A stretch of 53,579 nucleotides of DNA from Candidatus Levyibacteriota bacterium (GCA_050255815.1 JBLMVJ010000020.1:1-53579); one strand, 5' to 3'. Numbered from the stretch's first letter, positions 12,308 through 49,741 are shown. Made by a program: numbers and translations. The notes: generated by a model from the letters alone, not told the origin.

Positions 12308-12316
12308 AATATGTAA

Positions 12317-25480: not shown

Positions 25481-26106
25481 AAAATTTGATTAAAAAAATA
25501 AGAAATCCAAAAGTCTTACGGGTTTTAATTGGGGCATTGATAGTTATTCTTGTTGTAGGAGGGTACCTCTTTTTTGAGAAAACAAACGGGCGGGTGCAGA
25601 TAGATAATTCTTTAGTTCAGTCACCCATTATTAACATAGTTCCCGCTGCTCCCGGACGCCTTATGGAGCTGGATGCGGTAGAAGGGCATATGGTAAAAAC
25701 AGGGGATACACTGGCAGTAGTAGGATCTGAAACTATAAGGTCGCAGACTAATGGTTTGATAATCCTGGCAAATAATCAGGTAGGAGGAACGGTTTCTCCT
25801 ACGCAGCCGCTTATCCAAATTATTGCAACCCAAAATATGCGGATTGCCGGGACCATAGATGAAAATAAGGGACTGAGTGATATAAAAGTAGGACAGCCGG
25901 TTTCTTTTACCGTAGACGCTTTACCCGGTACGTTTTGGGGATATGTAGATGAGATTTCCCCTTCTGCAAAACAAACCCAGGCAGCGTTTTCTATTTCTTC
26001 AGAACGCCCTACCCAGCAATTTGTGGTATATGCCCGTTTTAACAGTGCAGCTTATCCTCTCATTAAAAACGGCATGAGTGTCAAAATGACCGTTTTCACC
26101 AAGTGA
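25477..26106 (+). CDS. Short HlyD-family secretion/adaptor protein (EmrA-like)
   Basis: N-terminal TM helix. VEGHMVKTGDTLAVV lipoyl-like motif and VGQPVSFTVDALPG barrel motif. ATGA overlap with the upstream gene. Confidence 0.7.
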   Translation: MKNLIKKIRNPKVLRVLIGALIVILVVGGYLFFEKTNGRVQIDNSLVQSPIINIVPAAPGRLMELDAVEGHMVKTGDTLAVVGSETIRSQTNGLIILANNQVGGTVSPTQPLIQIIATQNMRIAGTIDENKGLSDIKVGQPVSFTVDALPGTFWGYVDEISPSAKQTQAAFSISSERPTQQFVVYARFNSAAYPLIKNGMSVKMTVFTK

Positions 26107-27623
26107 TGTCAGAGAAAAAAAAGAAGGCCTCCTTCCAGGCCCAGCAATGGATGATACTCACTACCGTTATGATTGCCTCTTTTTTGGGGAGGCTTGACGG
26201 TACTATTGTAAACCTGGCACTGCCTAAAATTATTACCGATTTTGGCATCACGGTTTCCCAGGCCAGTTGGATTTCTACGGCATACATTATTGCAAACGCT
26301 ATTTTTGTCCCTATTTTTGGAAAACTGGGAGATTTAATAGGACGCAAATCGCTCTATATTTTTGGTATAGTCGGGTTTACCATTACTTCTGCTTTGGCCG
26401 GCCTTTCTTTTAACCTTCCATCTATGGTGATTTTCCGTATCCTGCAGGCAATTACCGTATCTATTGATTATCCTATTGCGCTTTCAATTATTGCCTATGA
26501 ATTTAAAGACCGCGGACAGCGTGCCCAAGCCATGGGATTGTGGTCTGCTGTTTTTGCCGGGGCTGCAGTTTTTGGTCCGCTTTTGGGAGGTCCGTTAATT
26601 GACGTTTTCTCCTGGCGTTCTGTGTTTTATATCAATATTCCATTAGGGATTATAGGCACCTATATGGCATGGCAGTTTATCCATGAGCCAAAAAGGGAAA
26701 TAAAAGGAGTGAAGAATTTTGACGTTTTAGGTTCTTTGCTTTTAGGTATATCGCTCGGCGTTCTTGTACTGGTTTTGGACCAGGGACAATCCTGGGGATG
26801 GACCAGCCGGAATAGCATTATCTCTTATGTTATTACTATTGCCTCTATGCTTCTATTCCTTTTTGTTGAAAGCCGCCAGAAAGAGCCGGTTGTTGATTTA
26901 AAATTCTTTAAAATCCCTACCTTTTCAGCAGCTATAGTCACTTCATTTATTTCTTTCATGGGTATGATAGGCGGAATTTTTTTGATTCCTATTTTTGTAC
27001 AAACATACCTGGGATATTCCGTGACTAAAACCGGATATTTATTTATCCCTATGGCTTTTGGTATTGGAGTTTCTGCCCAGATTGGAGCCAGGCTTTCTGC
27101 CCGGATTCAGCCCCGCATTATCACCGCTTTTGGCATGGCAGTATCTGCAGCAGCTTTATATTTTCTGTTTTCCGGAATTGACGTAAAATGGGGAGCCTGG
27201 GATGTTATCTGGAGGTTAACTCTCTTTGCGGCAGGATTGGGAATAGGTCTTTCTCCGTTAACGAATGCTGCAACTTCAACGGTTCCTATCCATGAAGTTG
27301 GTATTGCGTCTTCAGTATTAGCTTTGGCACGCAATATCTCAGGGGCTTTTGGTGTTGCTATTTTCGCAACTATCTTAACAGATAGTACTACCCGCCAGTT
27401 GGTAACCCTGCAAAAATATTCTGTGATAAATTCAACGGACCCGGTAGCAATCCAAACATACATGGGTTTATTGGCAGTAAAAGCAAATGTGTTGGCATAC
27501 TCAACCGTGTTTAAAGTGGCCGGAGTCTTGTTGGGCTTAGGAGCAGTATCTGCGTTATTTGTGAAAGAGAGTAAGCGTGATTTTGGGGCAGTGCCGGAAG
27601 AGCATCAGATGATAGAAATGTAG
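26103..27623 (+). CDS. MFS transporter, DHA2 (EmrB/QacA, 14-TMS) family
   Basis: 506 aa. LDGTIVNLALPKI, GKLGDLIGRK (motif A) and 14 hydrophobic segments. Confidence 0.9.
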   Translation: MMSEKKKKASFQAQQWMILTTVMIASFLGRLDGTIVNLALPKIITDFGITVSQASWISTAYIIANAIFVPIFGKLGDLIGRKSLYIFGIVGFTITSALAGLSFNLPSMVIFRILQAITVSIDYPIALSIIAYEFKDRGQRAQAMGLWSAVFAGAAVFGPLLGGPLIDVFSWRSVFYINIPLGIIGTYMAWQFIHEPKREIKGVKNFDVLGSLLLGISLGVLVLVLDQGQSWGWTSRNSIISYVITIASMLLFLFVESRQKEPVVDLKFFKIPTFSAAIVTSFISFMGMIGGIFLIPIFVQTYLGYSVTKTGYLFIPMAFGIGVSAQIGARLSARIQPRIITAFGMAVSAAALYFLFSGIDVKWGAWDVIWRLTLFAAGLGIGLSPLTNAATSTVPIHEVGIASSVLALARNISGAFGVAIFATILTDSTTRQLVTLQKYSVINSTDPVAIQTYMGLLAVKANVLAYSTVFKVAGVLLGLGAVSALFVKESKRDFGAVPEEHQMIEM

Positions 27624-29557: not shown

Positions 29558-30031
29558 ATGAGAGATCTGCCTAAGTTGATTGCTTCAGTTGTTCTATGTG
29601 AAGGCGTGGGAATTATTGCTTCTTTTTTCACCATCCCTTCTATTCCTACCTGGTATGCCCACCTGACTAAACCTGGCTTTTCCCCTCCTGATTGGCTTTT
29701 TGGTCCTGTATGGATTCTCTTATATTTTCTTATGGGAATTTCTTTATATTTAGTTTGGCGGGAAGGGTTGCATAAGAAAAAAGTGCATATAGCAGTGAAC
29801 TATTTTTTGCTCCAGCTGGGGTTCAATTTCTTTTGGAGTATTATTTTCTTTGGTATGCACCAGCCGTTTTTAGCCCTCATAGATATAGCGGCAATGCTGT
29901 ATGCTATCATTATGACCATGGAGCATTTTAAACTTGTTTCAAAACCTGCTATGTATTTGCTGGTCCCCTACCTGGCGTGGGTTACTTTTGCTACCATCCT
30001 GAATTTTTCTATAGTATTACTCAACATATAA
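29558..30031 (+). CDS. tspO: TspO/MBR family tryptophan-rich sensory protein
   Basis: 157 aa, 5 TM helices. WYAHLTKPGFSPPDWLFGPVWILLY and LVPYLAWVTFATILN are typical. Confidence 0.85.
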   Translation: MRDLPKLIASVVLCEGVGIIASFFTIPSIPTWYAHLTKPGFSPPDWLFGPVWILLYFLMGISLYLVWREGLHKKKVHIAVNYFLLQLGFNFFWSIIFFGMHQPFLALIDIAAMLYAIIMTMEHFKLVSKPAMYLLVPYLAWVTFATILNFSIVLLNI

Positions 30032-30083: not shown

Positions 30084-32642
30084 TCAGAGGCTGTACTTCT
30101 TCAAAAACACTTTTTTCAGCGATTCAACCAGGACCAGGTAGGTTGATACCAGGATAATAAGAATGAAAAAGTACAGAGGCGGTGGAGTCACAAACCCTAA
30201 CGTTTTTGCAAGAGGAGAGAAAGGTATAAGTAAAGATGCTAAGACAATCCCAACGCACGTTATCAGTAACCACTTTCCCGGGCGGCTCATAAAAAACGGA
30301 CTGCGGGAAGTCCGGATTACAAAGACTACCAGGATTTCTGTTGCCATAGATTCTATAAACCAACCCGTTTGGAAGAGGGCGCCCTGTGCCTTGAAGAGAA
30401 AGAGCATAACGCCAAAAGTCAGAAAATCGTAAAGGGAACTGATAGGACCAAAGAAAATCATATAATTTCTAATGAAATTGATATTCCAATGCCGTGGTTT
30501 CAGAAGGGATTCATGGTCTACATTATCAGAAGGGATAGAAAGTTGTGATAAGTCATAAAGCCCATTGGTTAGTAGAATCTGTACCGGGCTCATAGGGAGA
30601 AACGGTAGAAAAAAAGATGCACCGGCAGCAGAGAACATATTCCCAAAGTTTGAGCTGGTGCCCATAAGGATGTATTTAATGGTGTTGTTAAATGTTTTAC
30701 GGCCTTCTATAATCCCGTCAGCAATTACATCCAGGCTTTTTCTGAGAAGTACAATTGCCGCCGCGTCTTTTGCTACGTCTATTGCCGTATTTACTGAAAT
30801 GCCTACATCAGCATTCCGCAGTGATGGTATATCATTGATCCCGTCTCCCAGGTAACCTACCGTATGGCCATTATCTTTTAACACTTTAATAATCCGTAGT
30901 TTCTGCTCCGGGTTTACCCGGGCAAAAATATTTACATCCAAAACTTTTTTCTGCAATTCCGTGTCTGACAATTTATCTATTTCATTCCCCAGTAAAATTC
31001 CTTCTACCTCCATCCCTACCTCTTTGCAGACTTTTTGGGTAACTATTTCATTGTCCCCGGTAATTACCTTCACTGCTACATTCAGGTGTTTTAACTTGAC
31101 TAGTGCTTCTTTTGTAGAAACTTTTGGAATATCCAGAAAGGTGAGATACCCCTGGAAATCCAGTCCTTCCACATCTTTCCATGAATAAGCATCTTTTTTC
31201 TTTACTTTTTTTACCGCAACGGCAACCAGCCGCAGGCCTTCATTGTTCAACTCTTCAAATTTCTTCTTTAAATTATGCACTTCTTCTGTTTGTTTACAGT
31301 ATTCTAAAATAGACTGTGGAGCGCCTTTTGCAATAAGGGTGGCTTCATCTTTTTCCCAAATTACTGAGTACATTGCTTTGCGGTTATAATCAAAAGGCTC
31401 ATCCTCTAGTTTAGTGACCGTATCTGCGTGTTTTATATTGTGTTTCATAGCGTATTTCCAGATAGCCGCATCTATGCCGTTCCCAATTGCTTTATGGTGG
31501 ATAATTGCGTTGTTACAATGAAGGGCATTTAATAGTACATGTCCATCCTTCTGTCCTTCCCGGTTAAAAAAATCAACCAGCTCTATATTTCCCTCCGTAA
31601 GCGTTCCTGTTTTATCAGTGCAGAGCGTGTCCATGTTCCCCAAATTTTCTATAGCAATCAGCTGTTTTGCGACTACATGTTTTTTTGCCAGTTTTCCCGC
31701 TCCATGGGACAAGCTGACTGTTACAATGACCGGCAATAGTTCCGGAGTTAAACCTACCGCTATAGCAAGTGAAAATAAAAGCGATTCCAGAAAGTGATGG
31801 CCTAAAAATGCATTGATAACAAAAATCAAAAGAGTGAGGGTTAGAATTACTTTGACTAAAAGCTTTCCGAAACCGGTAAGTCCCTTTTCAAAATCTGTTT
31901 CCGGTTTTATGAATACCGTACTTTTTGCAATTTTTCCAAATTCCGTATCTTTTCCAATCCTCAAAATAACTCCTTTTCCTGATCCGCTATCAACGGAGGT
32001 CCCCATGAAGGCAACATTAGAAATACCTCCAATCCCTTCAGGCTCTTTTAAAAGTGCATCTGCCGTTTTGAATGAGGTCTTGGATTCCCCGGTGAGTGCA
32101 GACTGGTTAATTTCTAAATCATTTGTCTGTATGAGGCGCAAGTCTGCAGGAATAATACTTCCCTGGGATAGCAAGACTACATCCCCTACCGTTAAAGTGG
32201 CTACGGGAATTTCAATTTTCTCGTCATTGCGTATGACTAAAGCGGTAGGTGAAATTTTCTTGAGTAAGTTATCTATGGTCCTTTCTGCGCCGTATTCATT
32301 CCAAAAGCCCAAAATAACACTTACTAAAATCATGCCAAAGATATAGTAAGAGCTTATCTGCTGCCCCAAAAGAAAAGAGACAAAAGTAGCAACAGCCAGG
32401 ATGATGATAAGGGGATTGCTCTTAAATTGGCGGAATATGATTGAGAACATATTAACCTTACGTTTATGGATAGTGTTCAGGCCATATTTTTTCTGCCGTT
32501 CTATTACCTGAGATTCCGTAAGCCCTGATAAGCGGGTTTCCAGGCGGGTGAGTATGTCTTCATAGTTCAACTTCCAAAATTCCTGATCCAGTTTTTCTTC
32601 CGGCATACTTTTATGGTACAGGAGATGGGTAAGTGCTTTCAA
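30084..32642 (-). CDS. mgtA: Magnesium-importing P-type ATPase (P3B, MgtA-like)
   Basis: LTGES, DKTGTLT, GDGINDIPSLRNADVGISV, and the MgtA-specific LPMSPVQILLTNGLYDLSQLSIPSDNVD...KPRHWN...FFGPISSLYDFLTF. TTG 32642 is the longest start; ATG 32606 (MPEEKL) is the likelier one. Confidence 0.85.
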   Translation of the reverse strand: MKALTHLLYHKSMPEEKLDQEFWKLNYEDILTRLETRLSGLTESQVIERQKKYGLNTIHKRKVNMFSIIFRQFKSNPLIIILAVATFVSFLLGQQISSYYIFGMILVSVILGFWNEYGAERTIDNLLKKISPTALVIRNDEKIEIPVATLTVGDVVLLSQGSIIPADLRLIQTNDLEINQSALTGESKTSFKTADALLKEPEGIGGISNVAFMGTSVDSGSGKGVILRIGKDTEFGKIAKSTVFIKPETDFEKGLTGFGKLLVKVILTLTLLIFVINAFLGHHFLESLLFSLAIAVGLTPELLPVIVTVSLSHGAGKLAKKHVVAKQLIAIENLGNMDTLCTDKTGTLTEGNIELVDFFNREGQKDGHVLLNALHCNNAIIHHKAIGNGIDAAIWKYAMKHNIKHADTVTKLEDEPFDYNRKAMYSVIWEKDEATLIAKGAPQSILEYCKQTEEVHNLKKKFEELNNEGLRLVAVAVKKVKKKDAYSWKDVEGLDFQGYLTFLDIPKVSTKEALVKLKHLNVAVKVITGDNEIVTQKVCKEVGMEVEGILLGNEIDKLSDTELQKKVLDVNIFARVNPEQKLRIIKVLKDNGHTVGYLGDGINDIPSLRNADVGISVNTAIDVAKDAAAIVLLRKSLDVIADGIIEGRKTFNNTIKYILMGTSSNFGNMFSAAGASFFLPFLPMSPVQILLTNGLYDLSQLSIPSDNVDHESLLKPRHWNINFIRNYMIFFGPISSLYDFLTFGVMLFLFKAQGALFQTGWFIESMATEILVVFVIRTSRSPFFMSRPGKWLLITCVGIVLASLLIPFSPLAKTLGFVTPPPLYFFILIILVSTYLVLVESLKKVFLKKYSL

Positions 32643-39042: not shown

Positions 39043-40767
39043 TCAACCAAACGTGAAGGTGAATACTTGAATTCCTGGCGACTGAAACTGAAGCCTTAAC
39101 GTGTGATTTTCTGTTTTCCCATGCAAATCAACTATGTGGTAAAGCCTGTCTGAGTCAACTGTAATAATGCCGTTTTTTACATCTTTTCCGGAAACAGAGG
39201 GAGCTATAACTTTTCCATCCACATATACTTTTACAGTCTGGAGATTTGAATTGCTTCCTGGCCTCAAAATAATATATACATTGCTCGCAATAAAGTTATA
39301 ATTGAGGGAAGCATTTTCCCCAGCAGTTGCAGATTCATTAGATATATTCCATTGTCCTCCATAGCTAAAAGCATTCAACGGGATATTTTCAGAAAGTGCA
39401 AATGTTTCTACTCCGTTAGGAAGCGATCCTGAAGGATAGTAATATTGCATTCGCGCTGATCCCAGGTATGTTTCCGGGGATATTCTCCCAGCTGGGGTTT
39501 GGTCTTGTGTTGGTACAAAAGATGTGTCGACTTTTTTGCCAGTCTCTTTCAGGAGGACCTGGATTGTTTTTTCAGTCTGGTCATATTCCCCTTCCCCAAA
39601 ATGGGTCCTTCTGATATTTCCATTCACATCAATAAGGTACTCAGCCGGCCAGTACTCATTGTTATAATTATTCCATGTAGAATAATTGTTATCCTGGGCA
39701 ACCGGGTATAAGATCTTATACATCTTTATTGCTTGTTCCACATTCGTGGTTTCATGTTCAAATTGAAATTCAGGCGTATGGATTCCAACAACTACAAACC
39801 CCTGGTTTTTGTACTTGTTATACCAGGAAGTAGTAAAGGGAAGGGTCCTAATACAGTTGATGCAGGTGTATGTCCAAAAATCTACCAATACCACTTTCCC
39901 TTTTAAATCCTTGATAGATATTGGTTTATCAGTATTGAGCCAATGTGTTATTCCAAGAAAGTCCGGCGCAGGCGTATCTGCATTAAATAAGTCATTTATA
40001 TTAATATTATTTGTATTTATAGTGTTTCCTTTTAGTAGGGCAAGCTGGTTTTTTACTGCTTTATTATTTTCCAGATTTATAAGATTAATCCCATATGAAG
40101 TGTTAGCAATAAATGATTCAAAATTTGTATCCAGATGAAAGAAAATTCCTATAGCGAAGAACGCCATTATCACGCCAAATCCTTTTTGTACATTTCCTGT
40201 ATTTGACCGGAGACTTGGTATTTTACGAAACAAACCTTCTCCGCCAACCATGATGAGAAACATAGGAATACCAGAGCCTACAGCATAAAAAAGAGTAATC
40301 AGCAGTGTTTCTGTAGTTACCTTGCTGGTTGCAGCAAGTGCAATAACTGAAGCCATAATTGGGCCAACACAGGGGGCCCAGATAATGCCAATAGATAGCC
40401 CTATGAAAACTCCGCCAAAAAATCCAGTATTAGGTTTTGCTGTTGGGGCAAAGGCAGAAAGCTTTGTAAATAGCTGTTCCATAAGGACCTGAAATTTAGG
40501 AACAAACAGGCTAGTTCCAAAAGTGAGAAGGATGATTGCTGCAACTATTCTCAGCGCATCAGCCGGTATTCCTGTGAGTTGTATTATTTTTGTTAGAAAA
40601 AGTGTGAAGAAAGTGAAGCTTACAATAAATCCAACTATTATACCAAGGGGTTTTCTTTTTCCTCTCCCCACTGATCCTGAAAGAACAATAGGAAGTATTG
40701 GCAAAATGCATGGTGATAGTATTGTTACTATTCCTGCAAGAAACGCAAATCCCAAAAGTAAAATCAT
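39043..40767 (-). CDS. DipZ-like thiol:disulfide interchange protein (CcdA/DsbD membrane domain, thioredoxin-like domain and C-terminal beta-sandwich)
   Basis: LSPCILPILPIVL and WAPCVGPI (DsbD-type Cys pairs), DFWTYTCINCIRTLP (CxxC redoxin), and a C-terminal ...LRLQFQSPGIQVFTFTFG. Confidence 0.85.
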   Translation of the reverse strand: MILLLGFAFLAGIVTILSPCILPILPIVLSGSVGRGKRKPLGIIVGFIVSFTFFTLFLTKIIQLTGIPADALRIVAAIILLTFGTSLFVPKFQVLMEQLFTKLSAFAPTAKPNTGFFGGVFIGLSIGIIWAPCVGPIMASVIALAATSKVTTETLLITLFYAVGSGIPMFLIMVGGEGLFRKIPSLRSNTGNVQKGFGVIMAFFAIGIFFHLDTNFESFIANTSYGINLINLENNKAVKNQLALLKGNTINTNNININDLFNADTPAPDFLGITHWLNTDKPISIKDLKGKVVLVDFWTYTCINCIRTLPFTTSWYNKYKNQGFVVVGIHTPEFQFEHETTNVEQAIKMYKILYPVAQDNNYSTWNNYNNEYWPAEYLIDVNGNIRRTHFGEGEYDQTEKTIQVLLKETGKKVDTSFVPTQDQTPAGRISPETYLGSARMQYYYPSGSLPNGVETFALSENIPLNAFSYGGQWNISNESATAGENASLNYNFIASNVYIILRPGSNSNLQTVKVYVDGKVIAPSVSGKDVKNGIITVDSDRLYHIVDLHGKTENHTLRLQFQSPGIQVFTFTFG

Positions 40768-40874: not shown

Positions 40875-43514
40875 CTAGTGAACATGGTGTAAAAAAAGTT
40901 TTGTCCTATTATTAATTATCTTTTGAACGTCAAACATAATAACAATGGTTAAGGCTGCACCTATTGCGATTAACCAACTTTCATGACCAAGAGCTGTTGT
41001 TTCAAAAACTTCTCTAAGAGGTGTATAAATAATACTTAGTGTTGCTAGAATTGAAAGTAATGATGCCCAAAAGAGATATTTATTTACCAGTAAACCTCTA
41101 TTTAATACGCAATATCTGAATGATCTAAAGTTATAAGCATTTGCAATCTGTACAAATATCATACTAACTAAAATAGTTGTTCTTGCAACCTCTGGTGGAA
41201 ACCTTAAAATATTAAAAGAAAGGTATGAAACGCAAAATGCAATTATTCCCATCGTTACTCCGTTTAAAATGAGAAGATTGAAGAATTCTCCAGTTAAAAT
41301 TTGTGCATTTTTCCGGGGCCTTTCCTGCATGATATCTTTTGATGTTTTATTAAATCCTAGTGTTATTGCTGGCATATCATCAGTCACAATATTCATAAAA
41401 AGGATTTGCAGTGCAGTAAGAATTGGCGTGTACCATCCCAAATATGGCGCGACTATCATACCAGTAAATAAGATATAAATATCAGAAAAATTACAGGCAA
41501 GCTGATATGTCACAAATTTACGGATATTATTGAAAATTGTTCGTCCTTCCTTAATTGCAATAACAATTGTTGCGAAATTATCGTCTTTTAGCGTAATGTC
41601 TGCTACCGAACGAGAGACGTCAGTCCCGTTTATACCCATTGCAACTCCAATATGCGCCTCCTTTAAAGCCGGCGCGTCGTTAACACCATCGCCAGTCATT
41701 GTCACAATTTCATTGTTGGCCTTTAACGCCTTCACGATACGAAGTTTATCTTCGGGTTGCACCCTCGCAAAAATCGCTATTTTGCCAACATTATTTATAA
41801 GTTCTTCATCGGACAAATCTTTTAGTTCTAGTCCTGTTAGGATATCACCTGTGATACCTATCTCATTGGCTATTGCTTGGGCTGTCGCTTTGTCGTCGCC
41901 CGTTATCATTTTTACTTTAATACCGCTTTGTTTACAAAGAGCAATAGCTTCGGCTACTTCTTCACGTGGCGGGTCTTCCATACCTACTATCCCCAGAAAT
42001 ATAAAAGAATCTTCTTTGTACGCAGCTTCCCCATTTAATTTGTATGCAAGTGCGATAGTACGAAAACCCTGAGAAGTGAGTTTTTTGTTAGCGTTTAGAA
42101 TGTCTTCTCGGTCACTTTCAGACAGGCGGTTTATTTCATTCCCTTCTTGCACTGAGATACATTGTTTAAGCAATATATCGGGTGCGCCTTTTGCATAAAC
42201 TATTTTTGCTGATGGAGCATCATAAAGGACTGACATCATTTTTCGCTTTGAATCAAAGGGCATCTCTTCCTCCCTCCTATTGGGGAAATTCTCACGAAAT
42301 AAATTAAATTTTGCCCCTAAGATAAGGAGAGCTCCTTCTGTTGCCGACCCTATCACCTTATAAAAATCGTCACTCCCAGACCGTTCAATATTTGAGTCGT
42401 TACAAATGACGGCACACTGCAATAATTTTTGGACAGACTCATTATTTGGAAGAGATATTTGCTTGCCGTTGTGGAAAATGGATCCTTTGGCTTCAAAACC
42501 CACGCCTCCAATATCAAAAATCGTTCCGTTCGTGAGAATCTTGCGAACCGTCATTTCGCCTTTTGTTAGCGTCCCAGTTTTATCCGAACAAATTACCGAT
42601 GTTTCCCCTAATGTTTCAATAATGGACATACGATTAACAATCGCATTTTGTTTGGCCATTCGGTTGACCCCGTAGGCAAGAGTAGCAGTTAATACAACCG
42701 GAAAACCTTCCGGAAAAGAAGAAACTGCGAGTGCGATTACAACAATAAGAATACTTATGCTTAACTCAAACGTCACAGTTTCAGCCCGGTAGAACAACAC
42801 AATACCCGTAATTATTGCCGCAGCAATCCCAATGCCCACCATATATTTAGAAACTGTGTTCACTTTTTCTTGGAGCGGAAGCTTTTTTTCTGCAGAAGAT
42901 ATCATGCTTGCAATATGTCCAAATTTGGTTTTCATGCCAGTTTGTATTACCTGAGCTACACACCTACCGCTTACGACGAAAGATCCCATATAAAGAACGT
43001 TCTCATTTGAGTATGACGTATGTGAGAACGTTTCGGTTTTTACAATATCTTCAGGTTCACCCGTAAGGATAGACTCATTGGTCTTAAGATTACTTGCCTC
43101 AAGAACAATACAGTCTGCCGGAATTTTTTCACCCGTTCTTAGAACTATATAGTCCCCCGGAACCAATTCTTTTGATGGAGTCTCATTTTCTTCCCCATCG
43201 CGAATAACTCGCGTAACAGGCATAATCATGTTGCGTAAAGAGCTCAATGCCTTTTCTGCTTTAAATTCCTGAATAAAGCCAGTCGTAATGACAATTGTGA
43301 CAACGACAAGAATAACGTATCCAGTAATTGCTTCGCCCAAAAAGAATGAAAGAATAGCAGTAATACCAAGAAGATAGATTACAAAATTCTTTTTAGCTTG
43401 TCTTATGAGAATTTGCAATGCCGATGTTTTATTCTTTTCTTGAATTTCATTAAAACCGAATTCTTTGAGTTTTTGTTGCGCTTCTTGTTGTGTTAGTCCC
43501 TTGAATTTTTTCAT
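40875..43514 (-). CDS. Cation-transporting P-type ATPase, P2A (Ca2+/PacL-SERCA-like)
   Basis: 879 aa. N-terminal LTQQEAQQKLKEFGFNE, TGEPE, CSDKTGTLTKGEM, MITGDDKATA and TGDGVNDAPALKEAHIGVAMG. Confidence 0.85.
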   Translation of the reverse strand: MKKFKGLTQQEAQQKLKEFGFNEIQEKNKTSALQILIRQAKKNFVIYLLGITAILSFFLGEAITGYVILVVVTIVITTGFIQEFKAEKALSSLRNMIMPVTRVIRDGEENETPSKELVPGDYIVLRTGEKIPADCIVLEASNLKTNESILTGEPEDIVKTETFSHTSYSNENVLYMGSFVVSGRCVAQVIQTGMKTKFGHIASMISSAEKKLPLQEKVNTVSKYMVGIGIAAAIITGIVLFYRAETVTFELSISILIVVIALAVSSFPEGFPVVLTATLAYGVNRMAKQNAIVNRMSIIETLGETSVICSDKTGTLTKGEMTVRKILTNGTIFDIGGVGFEAKGSIFHNGKQISLPNNESVQKLLQCAVICNDSNIERSGSDDFYKVIGSATEGALLILGAKFNLFRENFPNRREEEMPFDSKRKMMSVLYDAPSAKIVYAKGAPDILLKQCISVQEGNEINRLSESDREDILNANKKLTSQGFRTIALAYKLNGEAAYKEDSFIFLGIVGMEDPPREEVAEAIALCKQSGIKVKMITGDDKATAQAIANEIGITGDILTGLELKDLSDEELINNVGKIAIFARVQPEDKLRIVKALKANNEIVTMTGDGVNDAPALKEAHIGVAMGINGTDVSRSVADITLKDDNFATIVIAIKEGRTIFNNIRKFVTYQLACNFSDIYILFTGMIVAPYLGWYTPILTALQILFMNIVTDDMPAITLGFNKTSKDIMQERPRKNAQILTGEFFNLLILNGVTMGIIAFCVSYLSFNILRFPPEVARTTILVSMIFVQIANAYNFRSFRYCVLNRGLLVNKYLFWASLLSILATLSIIYTPLREVFETTALGHESWLIAIGAALTIVIMFDVQKIINNRTKLFLHHVH

Positions 43515-43669
43515 ACGTTCGAAATATAAAAAAGTATGCTATTTAACTATAGCAAATGCTTCTAAAGTGTGTAAATTAGTTTTGAACTTGGGGATAAAAG
43601 AGATGCGATTTTGAGCTTAGAAGTATATAAGAGTAGTGCATGCAATTCTGTAGCTTTAGCGAAAGATTG

Positions 43670-43740
43670 CTGCTGTGCAGGGATTCGAACCCCAATAAAC
43701 GGATCCAGATTCCGTTGTCCTACCATTAGACGACACAGCA
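43670..43740 (-). tRNA. tRNA-Gln (anticodon CUG)
   Basis: Hand-folded cloverleaf. Acceptor TGCTGTG/CACAGCA (U1-A72, G73 discriminator as in bacterial tRNA-Gln). D arm GTCT-AATGGTA-GGAC. Anticodon arm ACGGA-AT CTG GA-TCCGT. T arm with a TTCGAAT loop. No encoded CCA. Confidence 0.8.
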
Positions 43741-44021: not shown

Positions 44022-45527
44022 TTACGTCTTAGGGATATTGAGTTTGAATTTTTGTATTACCCCTTTATTTACTTCACTATTTTTTACCAGTATGGTCACG
44101 TTACCGTCTGCATAAACCGGAATCCATTCGGAGCCCAGAAGCAATGGAAGCAGGAATGGGCGGATTCTGGTAGGGTCATCTGTTGCTACATTAAACACTA
44201 CCGCATTTATGTGGTACTTTTCAGCCTGTTTTTTGAAAAAGCCGGGGTCAGCCATCATACGGTAGTATTCATCAAAAAATGGTCCGGGATACGCTTCCGG
44301 ACGGGCGTCTATGAATACCTGCTGCCGTGGATACAGCCGGTAAATCAAGTAGTTGCCTACAATGTAGTTATTAAATATATTTCCTTTGATATGGTTATTC
44401 ACTATGAAGTCGGCTGCTTTTTCAGCTGAAGGGACAAACTGGAAATGCAATAGGTCATAATCAAATAAGCCTTTTATATGGAACCCTACTATAAAAACTA
44501 CAATAGCTACACTCATCCCTTTTAATATGGTCAAGTTCGATTTCTCCATTTTTTTCTTCAGGGTTTCCTCAAGCTTTGTAAATGATTCTACTAAGTAAAC
44601 GAGACCAAGTACGCCAAACAGGGGGATACACCTGGTATAGCGCAATCCAAGGAAAGCTCCCACAAGCGCATTCCCCAGGTTTCCCTTTTTCCATAGTTTT
44701 GTAGAAAAACCAATTAAAAATAATAACATGAGGAACTCAAACGTCATCACTTGTAGTACCAGGGTGTATGCTATGTTTTGGTTAGTGCTGGTTGATTCAA
44801 ATATTTTGAGTGGTGAGGTATTTTCCTCTACATTAAAGTTGTAATTACTGGAAAACGTAAATGGAAGCAGAGCGCCTTTTACAAAACTAGGATTAATAAA
44901 GATGGAGACTAATAAGAAACCTCCGATTATTAGCAAGTTTTTCTTGATTTTTTTGCTGCGTAAATATTCCTCGGCCAAAAAGAATAGGTATATACCTAAC
45001 CCAAGGATAAAGTAAATGTGGGAATTTACCCAAAGCAATTCAATAGCCGGTAGACCGAAAAGCCAATATAGTTTCCCCGACTCTTTATATTTCTCCACAA
45101 GGAAAATAAATACACTAATAAATAAGTAGGAGAAAAGTTCCGGTAGGACATAGAAGCGGAGTGAAAAAATAGTGATAGACAGTAATGAAAAGATGATTGC
45201 CCAGAAAATTGATCCTTTTTTTATGGCTACCAGGTAAAGGATAGAAAAAGTGAGAAGTACCATGATGACCTTAAATACGAGTAGCGCCTGAAGTCCCAGT
45301 AATGAAACCAGATAAAATATTACCTCTGCAAACCATTCATGATTCACTATGGGAAAGTTAGGGTGCGTGTAGGAGAAAAGATTTGTTTGGGGGACACAGA
45401 GACATTTTAAGACCACTTCCCCCATTTTCAAATGCCGGCCCAGATCCCCCAGCATAGAAATATCCTTGGTAAAAAGTAACAGGAGTAAATAGGAAAACGG
45501 GATGAGTGCAAAGAGGAATTTCCTCAT
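44022..45527 (-). CDS. Polytopic membrane protein, possible GT-C-type glycosyltransferase
   Basis: 501 aa, about 11 TM helices, then a roughly 120-aa soluble C-terminus. N-terminal GDLGRHLKMGE...NHEW motif. Family not firmly recognised. Confidence 0.55.
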   Translation of the reverse strand: MRKFLFALIPFSYLLLLLFTKDISMLGDLGRHLKMGEVVLKCLCVPQTNLFSYTHPNFPIVNHEWFAEVIFYLVSLLGLQALLVFKVIMVLLTFSILYLVAIKKGSIFWAIIFSLLSITIFSLRFYVLPELFSYLFISVFIFLVEKYKESGKLYWLFGLPAIELLWVNSHIYFILGLGIYLFFLAEEYLRSKKIKKNLLIIGGFLLVSIFINPSFVKGALLPFTFSSNYNFNVEENTSPLKIFESTSTNQNIAYTLVLQVMTFEFLMLLFLIGFSTKLWKKGNLGNALVGAFLGLRYTRCIPLFGVLGLVYLVESFTKLEETLKKKMEKSNLTILKGMSVAIVVFIVGFHIKGLFDYDLLHFQFVPSAEKAADFIVNNHIKGNIFNNYIVGNYLIYRLYPRQQVFIDARPEAYPGPFFDEYYRMMADPGFFKKQAEKYHINAVVFNVATDDPTRIRPFLLPLLLGSEWIPVYADGNVTILVKNSEVNKGVIQKFKLNIPKT

Positions 45528-45535: not shown

Positions 45536-46945
45536 TTAACTTACTGCCTTACGGTCTTTCCAGAGGAGTCTGTCAACATGAAAGAGTTCCGGAAGCCTGT
45601 TCAGGAATGGGATATATGGAAATGCCATAAGTAATAGCACCAGGGACCCTAAGATAATGGCGCCATCCCGGTCCTGGTTATCATCATTTGCCAGTACCGA
45701 ATGGTCTAACAAGCCCAGAGGCGCCAACCACCATGCGCCCGGTGGAATAGTGACTTTCTCTTCCCGCAGCATACCATACTGGTCTGTTGTCATAGTGAGT
45801 TTGGTTGCCTGGTCTTCCAGCGCTCCGGTATCGGAAAGGAACCGTAGCGGATATGTTGTATTGTATCCCGTGTCTGATTCATTTCTAATAGCTGCTTCAT
45901 ACAGGCCATTTTTCCCCATTAAAACTAATGCGCTAATTACCGGAATGACCGGGTTTTTAGGGTTATCTTTTACCGTGATCACCCCTTCCTTTTCAAAATA
46001 GTCGGAAGCGTCTTTCAGCATTTTTTCCTGTTTCTCTTTTTGTGCATTATTAAATAGTGCTAAGGAATCAGTTCCGCCCTTCAGTTCTACGTACTGGGCA
46101 TACGGTTCTTCCACATATACTTTTTTAGTATCAAACTGGTAGGGGTCTATGTCATCGGAATAGGTAGCCGTATCTGAACTATGGTCTATTTCAGAAATTA
46201 AGGTTTTTGCCATAAGCCCGGGATCCTCATTTGCTATTTGTTTAATGGTAAGGGGTGAAATGATTGGAGAGGGGAAAATTATTGCAAGAATTATAATTAC
46301 TATCATGAGGACTGCGCCTCTCAAAAATAATACGGTATGGTTTGCTTTTACCATCCGGACCGGAACATCTTTCCTGTAAGGTTTTGCAATCCCCCTTAGC
46401 CTTATTAAACCATAATGCAGGAATAAAACACCCAAGAGGAGTAAGGGGATAATGACAATATGGATCCCATAAATCTGGGCATAATTCAGGTTATTGATAA
46501 ACAATCCCAAGCCGCTTCCGTTATATAAATCTGCTCCCTGTAGGCTTCTCCATTGGGAAGAAAAATCATCCCTTAGGACGTAACCAAATTCCGCCTCCGT
46601 CAGAACCAGGAAAAACATGATGGACCCCAGAACCCACAAAAATCTGCGTGGAGGTTTAAATCCGGAAGTAAGAAAAACTATAAAAAGATGCAGGATCATA
46701 AAAACTACAAAAGCTTGGAGGGACCAAAGATGGACAGAACGGGTGAAAATCCCCACCGGGGTTTTAAACCACCAGTCAGGGCCAAAAAATACCATTACAG
46801 ATCCTGTAATGATTAATAGCATGAAGCAGATCATTGAGAGGAACCCTAATGAGTAGAAGAACTTATTTGCATAGGAGGGCACGTTTTCCAGCATTACACT
46901 TTTCAACAGCTGTATGGTGCCAATTCCTTTTGGGGAATCTTCCAT
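45536..46945 (-). CDS. Di-haem cytochrome b (bc1/b6-type N-terminal domain) with an atypical C-terminal extension
   Basis: Helix B VHLWSLQAFVVFMILH (H-x13-H). FKPPRRFLW (PRE-W motif). Helix D IHIVIIPLLLLGVLFLH (H-x14-H, as in b6/Firmicutes type). Then one TM helix, about 190 soluble residues, PGAWWLAPLGLL and a final TM helix. Confidence 0.75.
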   Translation of the reverse strand: MEDSPKGIGTIQLLKSVMLENVPSYANKFFYSLGFLSMICFMLLIITGSVMVFFGPDWWFKTPVGIFTRSVHLWSLQAFVVFMILHLFIVFLTSGFKPPRRFLWVLGSIMFFLVLTEAEFGYVLRDDFSSQWRSLQGADLYNGSGLGLFINNLNYAQIYGIHIVIIPLLLLGVLFLHYGLIRLRGIAKPYRKDVPVRMVKANHTVLFLRGAVLMIVIIILAIIFPSPIISPLTIKQIANEDPGLMAKTLISEIDHSSDTATYSDDIDPYQFDTKKVYVEEPYAQYVELKGGTDSLALFNNAQKEKQEKMLKDASDYFEKEGVITVKDNPKNPVIPVISALVLMGKNGLYEAAIRNESDTGYNTTYPLRFLSDTGALEDQATKLTMTTDQYGMLREEKVTIPPGAWWLAPLGLLDHSVLANDDNQDRDGAIILGSLVLLLMAFPYIPFLNRLPELFHVDRLLWKDRKAVS

Positions 46946-46984
46946 ATTTTAAGTGTGTCACACTTTTACTTCTTAGTCAAATGT

Positions 46985-47398
46985 TTACAGAAGATACTCT
47001 ATTACATAGAAAACTATGCCGGAAACAACGGAAAGTGTCCAGAAAAAAAGAAAAACAAATGTGATCATTTTATGTTTGAGAAAATAATTTGTTCCTTTTT
47101 TATAATTTTTCCAGGCAAGTATTAAAAAAACAATGAGTGCTATGAACATAACCAAAGATAGAATCCCGTGGAAAGCGCCAAAGAGCAGGTTAAAGTTTGC
47201 CTCATTTTTTCCCTCATGTGCCTTAGTCCTGGTAACCATATAGGTGATGTTAAACATTACCTCATAGATTAAAGCCGCAGCAGCGGGGATGGTTGGGAAT
47301 TTATTTTTCTTATAGCCGGAGTAAAAGGTATAGAAAATAACAGAGGAAACAACCAGTTCTGCTATGAGGGAAATAGTGCTGAAAAGAGGAGCATGCAT
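46985..47398 (-). CDS. Four-TM membrane protein of unknown function (possibly DUF420-like)
   Basis: 137 aa, four hydrophobic helices. Lies between the cupredoxin and cytochrome b genes on the same strand. Confidence 0.5.
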   Translation of the reverse strand: MHAPLFSTISLIAELVVSSVIFYTFYSGYKKNKFPTIPAAAALIYEVMFNITYMVTRTKAHEGKNEANFNLLFGAFHGILSLVMFIALIVFLILAWKNYKKGTNYFLKHKMITFVFLFFWTLSVVSGIVFYVIEYLL

Positions 47399-47428
47399 TC
47401 TTTATTAATAGTAGCCCTTTTTTTATAA

Positions 47429-47944
47429 CTACTCAACAATCAGTTGCCCTACTTGTCCCATGAGGCGGTGTTTACCAACAGAACAGTAGTATTCAAATGT
47501 TCCGGCTTTATCTGCAGTGAATTCTACGGTATTCGTTTCTCCGGCTTTCGTTAAAGGCATTTTTACCTGCAGTTCATCAATATTAAAATTATGCATCATA
47601 TCATGGCTGGTCATAACTATTTTTACTTTTGTTCCCTTTTTTACTTTAATTTGTGCAGGTTTGTAATAAAATGAACCGGCCTCCATTTGTACCGTTACTT
47701 CATTTGGTGTTTGATCAGTTTGTGCTCCTGCTACGGCATTTTTAGCCTCTGCCTTTGCTTCAGAAGAGCTTTCTGTCATTTCTTCACGCATGCTGTTTGC
47801 GCTTAATGATTTGTTTGTTGTCTTTAGTGATAAGGCCACTACACCAACCAGCGCAATGAAGGCAATAATGCCTACTGCCAAGAGTATTTTTCCGTTGCCT
47901 TTTTGTATCTGGGGTGTCTCTGGTGTTTCCTGATGGTCTTCCAT
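47429..47944 (-). CDS. Membrane-anchored cupredoxin (type 1 blue-copper protein)
   Basis: N-terminal TM anchor and a low-complexity linker. Copper ligands in MMHNFNI and YYCSVGKHRLMGQVGQLIVE (His, Cys, His, Met). Confidence 0.8.
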   Translation of the reverse strand: MEDHQETPETPQIQKGNGKILLAVGIIAFIALVGVVALSLKTTNKSLSANSMREEMTESSSEAKAEAKNAVAGAQTDQTPNEVTVQMEAGSFYYKPAQIKVKKGTKVKIVMTSHDMMHNFNIDELQVKMPLTKAGETNTVEFTADKAGTFEYYCSVGKHRLMGQVGQLIVE

Positions 47945-47961
47945 GCCATAAATAATAAATA

Positions 47962-47981
47962 ATTGTGATTATAATCACAAT
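47962..47981. promoter_or_regulatory. Perfect 20-bp palindrome matching the CRP/FNR-family operator architecture
   Basis: ATTGTGATTATAATCACAAT equals TGTGA-N6-TCACA with a central TATAAT. Lies 18 nt upstream of the cupredoxin ATG (47944) and 84 nt upstream of the rpf-like ATG (48065). Confidence 0.55.
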
Positions 47982-48064
47982 AACTTACAAAAAAGTATCT
48001 TAGTTTCTTTTAGTAACTATTGGGTTGCAGTGTGTTGGGAAATAGTGTATCCTTTTTGGGGTTC

Positions 48065-48583
48065 ATGGAAACTTTGAGACAAAAGGCTCTGAATCTTTTT
48101 TTTACTCTGGGGGAGCGTGTTGGCCTGATCTTAATAGTAGTAGCTTTCCTCTCATTTTTTATTTTAGATAGGACCAGCCAGGCATTTTCAAAAGATACGC
48201 CGCAGTTTATTCCGCAAAAAACAGAGTGGTATAACCATAATGTGGCTTTTGTAGCTGCATCAGCTAAGACAGAGGCTTCTTATAGTGTGGCCGTTGCTAC
48301 CGTAACCCCAACGCCAACTCCGCGTATAATAGTAGATCCCTCAGGGCAGGATGTGTGGCTGCGGTTGGCGGAATGTGAATCCCACCAGAACTGGCAGGAT
48401 AACACAGGGAACGGGTATTATGGTGGATTACAGTTTAGTCAGGGTGCATGGCAGTCGGTGGGTGGGTCAGGGTTGCCGTCTGAAGCATCCCGGGATGAAC
48501 AAATTATGCGCGGGAAAATGCTGCAGGCGGCACGCGGTTGGTCCCCATGGCGTAACTGCGCGGCAAAGATAGGTGCCTTATGA
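48065..48583 (+). CDS. Resuscitation-promoting-factor (Rpf)-type transglycosylase-like protein
   Basis: N-terminal TM helix and a PTPTP linker. WLRLAECESHQNWQDNTGNGYYGGLQFSQGAWQSVGG...SPWRNC matches the Rpf catalytic domain, including the CES Glu. Confidence 0.8.
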   Translation: METLRQKALNLFFTLGERVGLILIVVAFLSFFILDRTSQAFSKDTPQFIPQKTEWYNHNVAFVAASAKTEASYSVAVATVTPTPTPRIIVDPSGQDVWLRLAECESHQNWQDNTGNGYYGGLQFSQGAWQSVGGSGLPSEASRDEQIMRGKMLQAARGWSPWRNCAAKIGAL

Positions 48584-49452
48584 AATTTTTGAAGCCGGAT
48601 GTTACTTTTTGGATTATTTTAACTGTTATCCTCATTTCAGCCACATTTGTTCTTTCTCCTTTTGAGACACTGGAAACTCCAAGGGGCCCTATTCCTCAAA
48701 ATACTCCAAATTCTGTTGCTGCCTCTTCATCAGCGTCTGCCTCTACCGTTTCACCCGTACAAGTTGCGGTTAAGGCAATAATTGATGGGGACACTATGCT
48801 GGATTCCCGGAACATAAAGATTAGGCTTATTGGTGTTAATTCTCCGGAGCTAAACCAGCCATACTATAAGGAAGCAAAAGCAAAACTGGAAAAATTAATT
48901 TTGGGAAAAGTTGCGCAACTTGTAACAGATATAGAGAAGAAAGATACATACGGAAGGGAGCTTGCGTATATGTATAACGGCAATATGTTTGTGAATATTG
49001 AGATGGTAAAAAACGGAATGGCCATAGCAGATCCGATTTCCCCAAATACTGCCCACGTAAAAGAGTTTGAAAATGCCCAATTGGGAGCAAAGAAAAACTG
49101 CGCCGGTCTGTGGCAAGGGGAGTGCAGGAAGGATTTGTGTGTAAAGATCACCGGAATTCAGGCAGGACAAGGCAAAAATTTAAACATTGAGAGCATTTCA
49201 TTTTTAAATACGTGTTCCGGTCCGGTTAACCTTTCAGGATATCTTCTCAAAGATAGTTCCAGCAATTCCTATACTTTTCCCTCAACGGTTATCAATAAGT
49301 CTTTGACTCTTCATACTGGTTGCGCAAAAGATACCGGTTCTGATTTGTACTGGGGGTGTCCTCAGCGGTCTACACCCGTCTGGAATAACGCAGGTGATCG
49401 CGCATTTTTGTTTGACAGCTCCGGGCTTCTTGTTTCAGACTTTTCATATTAA
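48580..49452 (+). CDS. Secreted staphylococcal-nuclease-like (SNase) domain fused to a lamin-tail domain
   Basis: TM/signal N-terminus. VKAIIDGDTM...IRLIGVNSPE...YGRELAYMY (SNase motifs). C-terminal NIESISFLNTCSGPVNLSGYLLKD...WNNAGDRAFLFD (LTD). ATGA overlap with the rpf-like stop. Confidence 0.8.
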   Translation: MKFLKPDVTFWIILTVILISATFVLSPFETLETPRGPIPQNTPNSVAASSSASASTVSPVQVAVKAIIDGDTMLDSRNIKIRLIGVNSPELNQPYYKEAKAKLEKLILGKVAQLVTDIEKKDTYGRELAYMYNGNMFVNIEMVKNGMAIADPISPNTAHVKEFENAQLGAKKNCAGLWQGECRKDLCVKITGIQAGQGKNLNIESISFLNTCSGPVNLSGYLLKDSSSNSYTFPSTVINKSLTLHTGCAKDTGSDLYWGCPQRSTPVWNNAGDRAFLFDSSGLLVSDFSY

Positions 49453-49489
49453 AGGTCTGCTGTGATTGACAACACCGCCTCAAAACAGT

Positions 49490-49741
49490 ATGCTAACAAG
49501 CATTATGCCAGGGTCCTATATCCTTAAGAAAGATACCATTATCAGCACTATCATTGATGATTGTCCACGGGCGGTTGAATTACTAACTGAGTATGGTCTT
49601 TTTTGCGTCAGCTGTTTTCTCAATCAATTTGACACATTAGAAACCGGTGCCATAATCCATAGAATGACTGATGACCAGATAAATAGCATGATTAAGGAAA
49701 TTAATGAGCAGTTGAAGAAAGAGTCCCAGCCCCAGAAATAA
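49490..49741 (+). CDS. DUF1858-like small protein (hybrid-cluster-associated redox disulfide protein family)
   Basis: DTIISTIIDDCPRAVELLTEYGLFCVSCFLNQFDTLETGA resembles the DUF1858 CxxC-containing helix bundle. Lies immediately upstream of sufC. Confidence 0.6.
   Translation: MLTSIMPGSYILKKDTIISTIIDDCPRAVELLTEYGLFCVSCFLNQFDTLETGAIIHRMTDDQINSMIKEINEQLKKESQPQK

Follow-up and report, generated by a model that had tools for sequence, protein, structure and literature searches.

What could a di-haem cytochrome b be doing in a bacterium belonging to the Patescibacteria, also called candidate phyla radiation (CPR), when its gene lies beside that of a blue-copper protein and has neither a Rieske nor a c-type cytochrome partner? 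The question is raised by three genes on a contig of Candidatus Levyibacteriota bacterium (GCA_050255815.1, JBLMVJ010000020.1:1-53579), which encode a membrane-anchored cupredoxin, a small membrane protein resembling the DUF420/CtaM family and a cytochrome b. The whole stretch of 53,579 nucleotides (nt) that was analysed is called the window below, and coordinates refer to it unless they follow one of the labels L001 to L099, which denote related loci collected for comparison. Levyibacteriota are part of the Microgenomates group of Patescibacteria. CPR bacteria make up much of bacterial diversity, and the usual picture is one of fermenters that lack electron-transport chains; yet some of them have genes for quinol oxidases, NirK, qNOR and cupredoxins, between which no route is known. 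Our preferred reading, to which we assign a probability of about one half, is that the cytochrome b is a transmembrane (TM) conduit with outer-face partners and belongs to a CPR accessory gene set concerned with quinone, O2 and N-oxides.

The three genes run in the same direction on the minus strand with short gaps, and open reading frames (ORFs) were found at exactly the coordinates claimed in the initial annotation. The cupredoxin (171 amino acids (aa); ORF call and Pfam) occupies 47944..47429, the DUF420/CtaM-like protein (137 aa; ORF call and a weak DUF420 match) 47398..46985, and the cytochrome b (469 aa; ORF call and Pfam) 46945..45536, with intergenic gaps of 30 nt and 39 nt, respectively. 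A fourth co-directional ORF (45527..44022, minus strand) starts 8 nt past the cytochrome b stop codon and is probably co-transcribed with the cytochrome b; its product is a polytopic membrane protein of 501 aa whose C-terminal part is soluble. Judging by this layout, the four genes form a single predicted operon under a CRP-type operator. A terminator-like hairpin detected by pattern scan at 43864-43835 on the minus strand (12-bp stem with 7 G-C pairs, T-rich tail) would end the unit ahead of the tRNA-Gln gene directly beyond it (43669-43740).

By its sequence and its modelled structure, the cytochrome b qualifies as a genuine b6-like protein. The search for N-terminal cytochrome b families suggested at the outset gave Pfam matches to Cytochrom_B_N_2 (4.3e-18) and Cytochrome_B (4.5e-11), over residues 28-231 only. 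The canonical haem ligands and the PRRFLW motif that had been read from the sequence are present, with H72-x13-H86 in helix B and H162-x14-H177 in helix D forming the pairs H72/H162 and H86/H177. A phmmer comparison with the PDB matched residues 17-189 to cytochrome b6 (E 1e-16) and set H72, H86, H162 and H177 on the b6 ligands H86, H100, H187 and H202, so the claimed ligands do align; all four histidines are invariant across 31 homologues. In Foldseek, the AlphaFold model superposed on solved b6 chains with a TM-score of 0.66-0.68 and a root-mean-square deviation of 3.6-3.9 A over ~205 residues. Identity with solved b6 is 28-30%, and the b6-type end of helix D is retained (IRLRGIAKP vs IRKQGISGP). 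The CxGG element, which in b6 comprises the haem cn cysteine and a double glycine, is replaced by SLGF, and the curated NCBIfam cutoffs were missed both for b6 (PRK03735; 57.1 vs 325 bits) and for ExtP (NF040969; 64.9 vs 290 bits). The protein appears to descend from cytochrome b6 and to work like it.

Both the hydropathy plot and the AlphaFold model point to six TM helices and, at residues 224-429, to a soluble domain made of helices. The b6-like di-haem bundle spans residues 1 to ~195 (46361..46945, minus strand) and the C-terminal module residues 200-469 (45536..46348, minus strand). Past helix D come TM helix E (205-223), an all-helical domain of ~200 residues, the PPGAWW motif, TM helix F (430-448) and a basic tail. 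The initial description of one TM helix, a soluble insert, PGAWW and a last TM helix therefore stands, while its suggestion that this part replaces subunit IV and carries a PEWY-like motif found no homology support. No Cytochrom_B_C match (PF00032) was obtained in the 469-aa protein at E values up to 0.1, and sequence and profile searches of Pfam and the PDB with the module, including its last 71 residues, gave no match. A second AlphaFold2 model, made with a deeper alignment, reached a predicted local distance difference test score (pLDDT) of 81.8, and Foldseek found no relative of the module's fold in the PDB (best E 0.46, TM-score <=0.24). An hhalign comparison with PetD placed PGAWW onto PEWY and YIPFLNR onto VPFIEN, the register assumed at the outset, but at a probability of 3.7% and with approximate PetD sequences, which makes it a lead at most.

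Because b6 homology puts the N-terminus in the cytoplasm, the large soluble domain should face outward. It is free of cysteine, and none of its histidines is kept throughout the wider family; a redox cofactor bound within the domain is therefore improbable. We infer this outer-face topology, and likewise the loading of the cytochrome b with haem. The outer-face cd loop, EAEFGY.LR.DFS.QWR.LQ..D.YNG.G, is polar and acidic and nearly invariant in the family, as are several motifs of the outer domain. Conservation is high along the full length, over which the family appears to be under selection. Of four defining features of Rieske/cytochrome b complexes, the di-haem cytochrome b is present and three were not found: a Rieske protein and a cytochrome c in the window and the flanks of the related loci, and subunit IV with its PEWY motif in the protein itself.

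The family is widespread among CPR bacteria. A large protein database contained 547 homologues; the best 120 listed are all full length (444-527 aa, 56-84% identity), and any names given read 'cytochrome b N-terminal domain-containing protein', from Patescibacteria or Saccharimonadales. Scanning one genome per species gave 86 loci, spread over Saccharimonadia, Daviesbacteria, Levyibacteriota, Doudnabacteria, Adlerbacteria, Berkelbacteria and Parcubacteria, and homologue loci include single contigs of 0.5-0.8 Mb (Saccharimonadales, Adlerbacteria). With the C-terminal module alone as query, 76 cluster representatives were found library-wide, among them proteins of 310-380 aa that have the module and no cytochrome b domain. 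Such separate modules come from Alicyclobacillus mengziensis, A. ferrooxydans, A. tolerans, Sulfoacidibacillus ferrooxidans, Peptococcaceae and Dormibacteria; Ktedonobacteraceae have fused forms. In A. mengziensis and in one Patescibacteria metagenome-assembled genome (MAG), a b6-like gene (~200 aa) and the module gene overlap at the end of the former, and no Rieske gene is nearby; for the A. mengziensis pair none lies within 8 kb, and just a 69-aa ORF follows downstream. The cd loop is common to the fused family and the split Firmicute form. Since split b6-like and module genes occur in several phyla, the window protein is the fused form of a two-gene, Rieske-independent unit, and the cytochrome b family as a whole is conserved and, at the loci sampled, Rieske-independent. 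One relative, P0122 (982 aa), has the cytochrome b and the C-terminal module followed by ~540 residues with weak matches to PQQ_2/beta-propeller families, an extension that may be another type of outer-face partner or an artefact of gene calling.

The likeness to the known b6/subunit IV pairs (PetB/PetD, QcrB/QcrC) lies in the four-helix di-haem bundle with H-x13-H and H-x14-H, in the 'IR.RGI..P' end of helix D, and in the occurrence of split (~200 aa plus a second protein) and fused forms in both. The b6f and Firmicute bc complexes include a Rieske protein and a c-type cytochrome, whereas neither occurs at the about 90 loci of the present family. The family also lacks the CxGG of b6 that serves haem cn, and its second module consists of two TM helices flanking a ~200-aa helical domain.

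The gene neighbourhoods were surveyed at 87 cytochrome b loci at first and 89 others in all, with 1197 flanking ORFs clustered. The cytochrome b is usually a lone gene, and no neighbour cluster occurs in >16 loci. Proteins with a Rieske motif (C-x-H...C-x2-H) were absent from the 1197 ORFs flanking the 87 loci, and five CxxCH matches in flanking ORFs proved to be spurious as c-type cytochromes (glutaredoxin-like proteins, an HNH nuclease and similar). The claim of a cytochrome b without Rieske or c-type partners is thus borne out here and in 87 related loci. Likewise, the reported lack of an adjacent Rieske, cytochrome c1/f or oxidase gene is true across the entire window, where Pfam and a motif scan found no Rieske, c-type cytochrome or oxidase gene in 53.6 kb. 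For the terminal oxidase this absence does not extend to the relatives: in L078 (Saccharimonadales, 8860-13131) and L023 (11648-13408), complete cyo quinol-oxidase operons are found at a distance of 1.5-6 kb from the cytochrome b.

In at least four loci (L045, L054, L061 and L071), genes for FMN_bind, ApbE and an NqrB/RnfD+NqrF-like (FAD/NAD-binding) protein come next in an operon-like arrangement, beginning 63-86 nt past the cytochrome b gene, and looser versions are seen in further loci. The flavin module (FMN_bind, ApbE and the NqrB/RnfD-NqrF fusion) is absent from the window by Pfam. P-type ATPases (~790 aa) neighbour the cytochrome b in nine loci, including L012 (3600-5975) and L031 (1901-4270); in two loci the arrangement is operon-like, with an 8-nt gap or overlapping ends, and by eye the N-termini resemble those of P3-type proton pumps.

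The triad was not kept in other Patescibacteria, where its synteny was to be sought: a cupredoxin stands by the cytochrome b in 0 of 89 loci. A conserved three-gene module was accordingly rejected, the 87 loci holding no cupredoxin and two DUF420-like genes, to which L088 adds one. The DUF420-like gene adjoins the cytochrome b in L007, L018 and L088. The last of these is the closest relative of the window locus (cytochrome b identity 84%) and carries both the DUF420-like and the 501-aa gene, the latter at 75% identity and with an identical 8-nt gap. Searches by tblastn, phmmer and hidden Markov model (HMM) found no copy of the 501-aa gene at the 87 cytochrome b loci, so that only L088 has one. 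Pfam, NCBIfam and the PDB gave no match for the 501-aa protein. That it might be a divergent oxidase subunit I was considered and rejected, as it has no COX1 signal and as its build, with TM helices and a C-terminal soluble part, may be closer to that of a GT-C-type glycosyltransferase.

The membrane-anchored blue-copper protein with HNF and YYCSVGKHRLM was recovered as described. The Pfam matches to Cupredoxin_1 (2.5e-11) and Copper-bind (5.5e-10) each exceed the gathering score, and the ligands H118 (HNF), C154, H159 and M162 (YYCSVGKHRLM, spacing C-x4-H-x2-M) are in the expected positions. The protein is built of an N-terminal TM helix (residues 20-38), a low-complexity linker of ~40 residues and the cupredoxin head, and because of this anchor and linker the head should be tethered outside the membrane. 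Among solved structures, subunit II of the Thermus ba3 oxidase matches it best (E about 5e-10), and nitrosocyanin comes second. The Thermus subunit has the same size and the same architecture of one TM helix plus cupredoxin, and H118 aligns with its CuA histidine. It differs in its binuclear CuA site: a 4-residue deletion in the window protein removes the first CuA cysteine, leaving a single cysteine instead of the C-x3-C pair and hence a predicted mononuclear His-Cys-His-Met site, which would be loaded with copper. No oxidase subunit I adjoins the window cupredoxin.

Anchored cupredoxins of 150-180 aa form a large family (585 matches, best 54% identity) that is often annotated COX2, and two loci with cupredoxin homologues have neither a cytochrome b nor a DUF420-like gene. 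In L099 (4362-12519), a homologue with 49% identity follows a GSDH gene (pyrroloquinoline quinone-type sugar dehydrogenase-like), and a copper-homeostasis cluster lies near it (CsoR-like repressor, HMA proteins, Cu-ATPase and a DsbD_TM-cupredoxin fusion). A different kind of anchored protein is encoded at L001/L028 (9221-9844, minus strand, on an 805-kb Saccharimonadales contig), where a 207-aa His-rich, TM-anchored protein is divergent from the cytochrome b. It ends in C-x2-H-x4-M and showed no Pfam match and no cupredoxin signal; a one-mismatch CRP box lies in the intergenic region between the two genes.

For the 137-aa protein, described initially as having four TM helices, the length and three clear helices were recovered, whereas the fourth is weak by hydropathy; the DUF420 family is reported to have 4-5 TM helices. 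A metagenome scan with this protein gave six further loci, none with a cytochrome b or a cupredoxin. In L096 (15-4393), the DUF420-like gene comes directly after cyoB-cyoC-cyoD-cyoE; the other five loci have neither cytochrome b nor cyo. CtaM (DUF420) is needed for haem-copper oxidases to assemble (PMC9145763), so the placement in L096 fits such a role, and it also matches the position of ctaM in Bacillus firmus (PMC9145763). CtaM of Bacillus and Staphylococcus is likewise a small polytopic membrane protein. The window homologue differs in scoring below the Pfam cutoff and in accompanying a cytochrome b rather than an oxidase, here and in three other loci. At L092 (4001-4985), a DUF420-like gene is convergent with, and overlaps, the gene for a 189-aa membrane protein with a weak match to Ferric_reduct (di-haem b), which is a third kind of b-haem membrane protein beside DUF420-like genes.

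The window holds one perfect palindrome, TGTGATTATAATCACA (TGTGA-N6-TCACA), against 0.02 expected by chance, and it stands at 47964-47979, ahead of the cupredoxin ATG by 20 nt; a single one-mismatch site elsewhere in the window is at chance level. In 973 kb of the 87 related loci, perfect TGTGA-N6-TCACA was found at 13 sites (12 distinct loci; 0.9 in shuffles). All 13 are 36-111 nt upstream of the cytochrome b ORF, with none in the remaining 922 kb, and L089 provided a further perfect site. Eight one-mismatch sites were also found upstream of the cytochrome b in related loci (17-fold enriched), and the core GTGA-N6-TCAC is 39-fold enriched there and present in 19 of 80 distinct loci. The palindrome was not found upstream of stand-alone cupredoxin homologues, DUF420 homologues or cyo operons. 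What had been noted as a candidate CRP/FNR-type operator is thus a perfect palindrome conserved upstream of the cytochrome b in related loci. It has the same perfect 16-bp consensus as known CRP operators.

Regulators of the CRP/FNR family neighbour the cytochrome b in nine loci. They combine cNMP_binding with HTH_Crp_2, have an RETVSR recognition helix and lack the FNR cysteine cluster; the helix resembles the RETVGR of E. coli CRP, unlike the E--SR of FNR. One of these regulator genes has a one-mismatch site of its own, and no gene for a CRP-family regulator is present in the window. A promoter-like site (TTGTGA-17 nt-TATTAT, minus strand, 47952..47980) overlaps the operator and matches the consensus at 9 of 12 positions in a scan. 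It is a weak candidate, the count of promoter-like sites in the operon region being not above the shuffled expectation; if it is real, the transcript would be nearly leaderless.

Since the window palindrome heads the cupredoxin gene, the cupredoxin and DUF420-like genes have been placed between the family operator and the cytochrome b. Nothing else argues as strongly for joint expression and use of the three genes, probably along with the fourth, in this lineage, although the combination is not a general one. The triad is thus lineage-specific but co-regulated.

We propose that the two bis-His haems connect a redox pool in the membrane or on its inner side, most likely scavenged quinone, with one-electron carriers tethered at the outer face. 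In this lineage the outer-face partner would be the membrane-anchored mononuclear cupredoxin that was recruited to the operon, and the unit would act as a complex-III substitute from quinol to cupredoxin, which could pass electrons on to copper enzymes such as NirK. The shared operon points to such a partnership, and a quinol:cupredoxin module, as first suggested, is plausible. Quinone use, the direction of flow and contact between the cupredoxin and the cytochrome b we infer as well. For the DUF420/CtaM-like protein, the likeliest role is in the maturation of the haem or copper proteins, or as a small subunit of them.

In other lineages the outer-face partner appears to be the flavinylated FMN-binding protein of an NQR/RNF-like module. 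A single-pathway module of this type, known from Actinobacteria and CPR, is thought to move electrons from NAD(P)H to an outer-face flavin (PMC8238504). Both it and the cytochrome b family are found in CPR and would move electrons across the membrane without a full chain, and the term 'cytochrome b' is absent from the text of this paper on flavinylation modules (Meheust et al. 2021, PMC8238504). With the low-potential flavin as partner, electrons could run inward to quinone, and the cytochrome b might supply the missing return path that completes the NQR/RNF-like half-circuit. For the high-potential cupredoxin, outward flow from quinol to copper is more plausible. The whole set would belong with the O2- and N-oxide-linked accessory genes of some CPR (cyo, NDH-2, blue-copper protein and FNR/CRP regulators). 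Because cyo operons occur near the cytochrome b of relatives, the unit is probably an accessory of the known CPR aerobic gene set, not a self-contained chain.

A cupredoxin acting as the outer-face carrier after a quinol-oxidising complex has precedents in b6f with plastocyanin, in the archaeal SoxM with the sulfocyanin SoxE, and in alternative complex III (ACIII) with auracyanin. SoxE is membrane-anchored, like the window cupredoxin. The b6f and SoxM complexes contain a Rieske protein and ACIII has Fe-S and haem c subunits, whereas neither type is encoded at the window operon. The published record contains a matching gap, set out in a 2025 survey: Patescibacteria with the single-domain cupredoxin 'pcy' lack complex III, and an unidentified non-classical protein must bridge quinone and cupredoxin (PMC12931201). 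In soil Saccharibacteria, cyo occurs together with a blue-copper protein, a fusion of the NqrB/F-like type and regulators of the FNR family, and scavenging of quinone and haem has been proposed for them (Starr et al., PMC6031116).

Several observations weigh against the conduit with a cupredoxin partner. A cupredoxin was found within ~6 kb of none of the 89 other cytochrome b loci by tblastn, phmmer or HMM, and since it is adjacent in the window only, a specific cytochrome b-cupredoxin complex is no property of the family. The pairing is accordingly drawn from one lineage. Co-localisation of cyo with the cytochrome b is seen at two loci. Homology of the C-terminal module to subunit IV or Cytochrom_B_C was not detectable, the Pfam, PDB profile and Foldseek results being negative and the hhalign score low, and the PEWY-like motif of the window protein has no acidic residue. 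A quinone-binding residue could not be confirmed in the cytochrome b, and quinone-synthesis, haem-synthesis and NirK genes were not found in the 53.6-kb window. The DUF420 match (PF04238; 5.9e-5) reaches 23.8 bits in the window and 28.0 bits in the L018 homologue, below the cutoff of 30.5. To our knowledge, Qo-type quinol oxidation without a Rieske-type high-potential acceptor is unprecedented in this protein family. Finally, transfer from a high-potential cupredoxin to low-potential b haems would be uphill, which makes the direction of flow uncertain.

One alternative is that the genes are co-transcribed and functionally separate, with the cupredoxin and the DUF420-like protein serving copper handling or a haem-copper oxidase encoded elsewhere and the cytochrome b being independent of partners. 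The oxidase connection of both small proteins is consistent with this: among solved structures the cupredoxin comes closest to an oxidase subunit II, COX2 is a frequent annotation in the cupredoxin's family, DUF420 is the assembly factor CtaM with a homologue after cyoBCDE in L096, and the cupredoxin homologue of L099 lies near a copper-homeostasis cluster. The cytochrome b, moreover, is normally a lone gene. However, the DUF420-like gene stands by the cytochrome b in 4 of 10 DUF420-like loci (window, L088, L007 and L018), independently and in both orders. The operator that heads the window operon is otherwise exclusive to the cytochrome b and is missing from stand-alone cupredoxins, and the cupredoxin retains the full His-Cys-His-Met site typical of electron carriers. 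On balance we consider separate roles unlikely, though less so than the other alternatives.

A role in redox protection of the envelope is a less probable alternative, in which electrons would move outward for repair or detoxification, in the manner of MsrQ/YedZ, the cytochrome b561 CybB or DsbD, with the cupredoxin or FMN protein as relays. The neighbours of the cytochrome b are variable and often related to redox or stress (MsrA in L006; thioredoxin, rhodanese and DUF302 in L004), but repair enzymes such as MsrP-like proteins, peroxidase or superoxide dismutase are never recurrent among them. A DsbD-thioredoxin fusion lies 4.8 kb off in the window, a dedicated switch of the CRP/FNR family is predicted, and the cyo oxidase of Saccharibacteria has itself been interpreted as oxygen scavenging. 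The bundle, by contrast, is of the bc type and not of the YedZ or b561 type, and the split form is present in the fully respiring Alicyclobacillus.

A bolder version of our preferred reading would see in the operon the Patescibacteria's 'missing complex III': a quinol oxidoreductase that depends on copper and has no Rieske protein, uses scavenged host quinone and feeds copper enzymes such as NirK. The tethered cupredoxin would stand in for the Rieske head, on a b6-like core bearing an outer-face domain of a kind not seen before. We give it little credence. If it were true, the cytochrome b family would be a new bc-type class with exchangeable outer partners (cupredoxin or FMN protein) and a dedicated CRP-type switch.

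Doubtful, too, is the strict form of the initial idea, a Q-cycle in which copper replaces the Rieske centre: the cupredoxin would dock on the outer-face crater and take the first quinol electron at a Qo-like site, the second passing down the b haems. The cupredoxin is built like a Rieske protein, with a TM anchor, a flexible linker of ~40 aa, a high-potential one-electron head and a solvent-exposed histidine ligand; it is predicted to be co-transcribed under the cytochrome b operator, and the published quinol-to-cupredoxin gap fits this scheme as well (PMC12931201). Yet it is missing from all 89 other loci and finds no acceptor within the window. The cd loop, which in bc complexes forms the lining of Qo, shows the highest conservation in the family but is polar and acidic where a Qo pocket is hydrophobic. 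The P-x-W-W motif ahead of helix F takes the place of PEWY/PPWF in bc complexes, although a Qo/PEWY site gained no support from any homology test, and the 200-aa outer domain fills the ef-loop position, where a Rieske head would dock.

An assembly or binning artefact, with the segment deriving from a respiring non-CPR organism that has an ordinary bc complex elsewhere, is scarcely credible: a few homologues are in MAGs labelled Gammaproteobacteria, Actinomycetota, Propionibacteriaceae or Acidiferrales, but such oddly labelled contigs are small-genome-like (for example, a 692-kb 'Actinomycetota' contig), homologues sit on the single contigs of 0.5-0.8 Mb of Saccharimonadales and Adlerbacteria, composition is uniform around the locus, the gene content is CPR-style (LTD-domain proteins, SNase-LTD nuclease, giant pilin-like protein and no biosynthetic operons), and a MarR-HlyD-HlyD-MFS block is syntenic with a Levyibacteriota contig that owns this cytochrome b. 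The GC content around the locus is 0.37-0.44, except for one bin of 0.47 at 20-22 kb. The syntenic block (23959-27623) is 39-64% identical to that of the 219-kb Levyibacteriota contig (L021, 5291-9120), which has its own cytochrome b copy 2-6 kb from the block. With this synteny, and with Patescibacteria as nearest relatives, the description of the genome as CPR-like holds, and a non-CPR origin of the contig is unlikely.

The remaining content of the window consists of housekeeping genes, SufCBDS, a DsbD_TM-thioredoxin fusion, two P-type ATPases, TspO, lamin-tail-domain (LTD) proteins and a giant pilin-like protein. The DsbD_TM plus thioredoxin gene, reported initially as a nearby DipZ, was confirmed by Pfam at 39043-40767. 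Divergent from the operon are an Rpf-like transglycosylase (48020-48583) and a secreted nuclease with SNase and lamin-tail domains (48580-49452); a DUF1858 protein is the third gene of this divergent block (48020-49741), directly ahead of SufC-SufB-SufD-SufS. The two ATPases of the window are P2-type (40875-43514 and 30084-32642), and one lies 0.5 kb past the operon terminator. A tetrapyrrole-binding membrane protein of the TspO/MBR family is encoded at 29558-30031 and has a 57%-identical homologue at L089 (778-1242), ~700 nt upstream of the cytochrome b, which may bear on haem scavenging by a haem auxotroph. The 1309-aa protein at 19437-23366 has an N-terminal pilin-type methylation motif and covers the sole GC-rich stretch of the window (0.47 vs ~0.40). 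L099 and the window (7773-11098) have the gene order Peptidase_S11, unknown, glutamyl-tRNA synthetase in common.

The family is already visible in databases under a generic name. The literature searched gave no account of the family in CPR: neither the architecture nor the Rieske independence is described there, nor are the split and fused forms, the operator or the links to flavin, cyo or cupredoxin genes. Dibrova et al. (2017) listed Saccharibacteria/Patescibacteria sequences in cytochrome b subfamily G, and these may be members of the present family.

Since the locus joins a cupredoxin to a Rieske-independent cytochrome b, both physically and regulatorily, it offers a concrete and testable candidate for a complex-III substitute in these bacteria. 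The split version in the cultivable Alicyclobacillus makes the family open to experiment. Should the cytochrome b oxidise quinol with no Rieske protein involved, the minimal design now accepted for bc-type enzymes would have to be revised. If the cytochrome b is merely an electron wire for envelope chemistry, it would still be a new part of the sparse redox toolkit of ultra-small bacteria.

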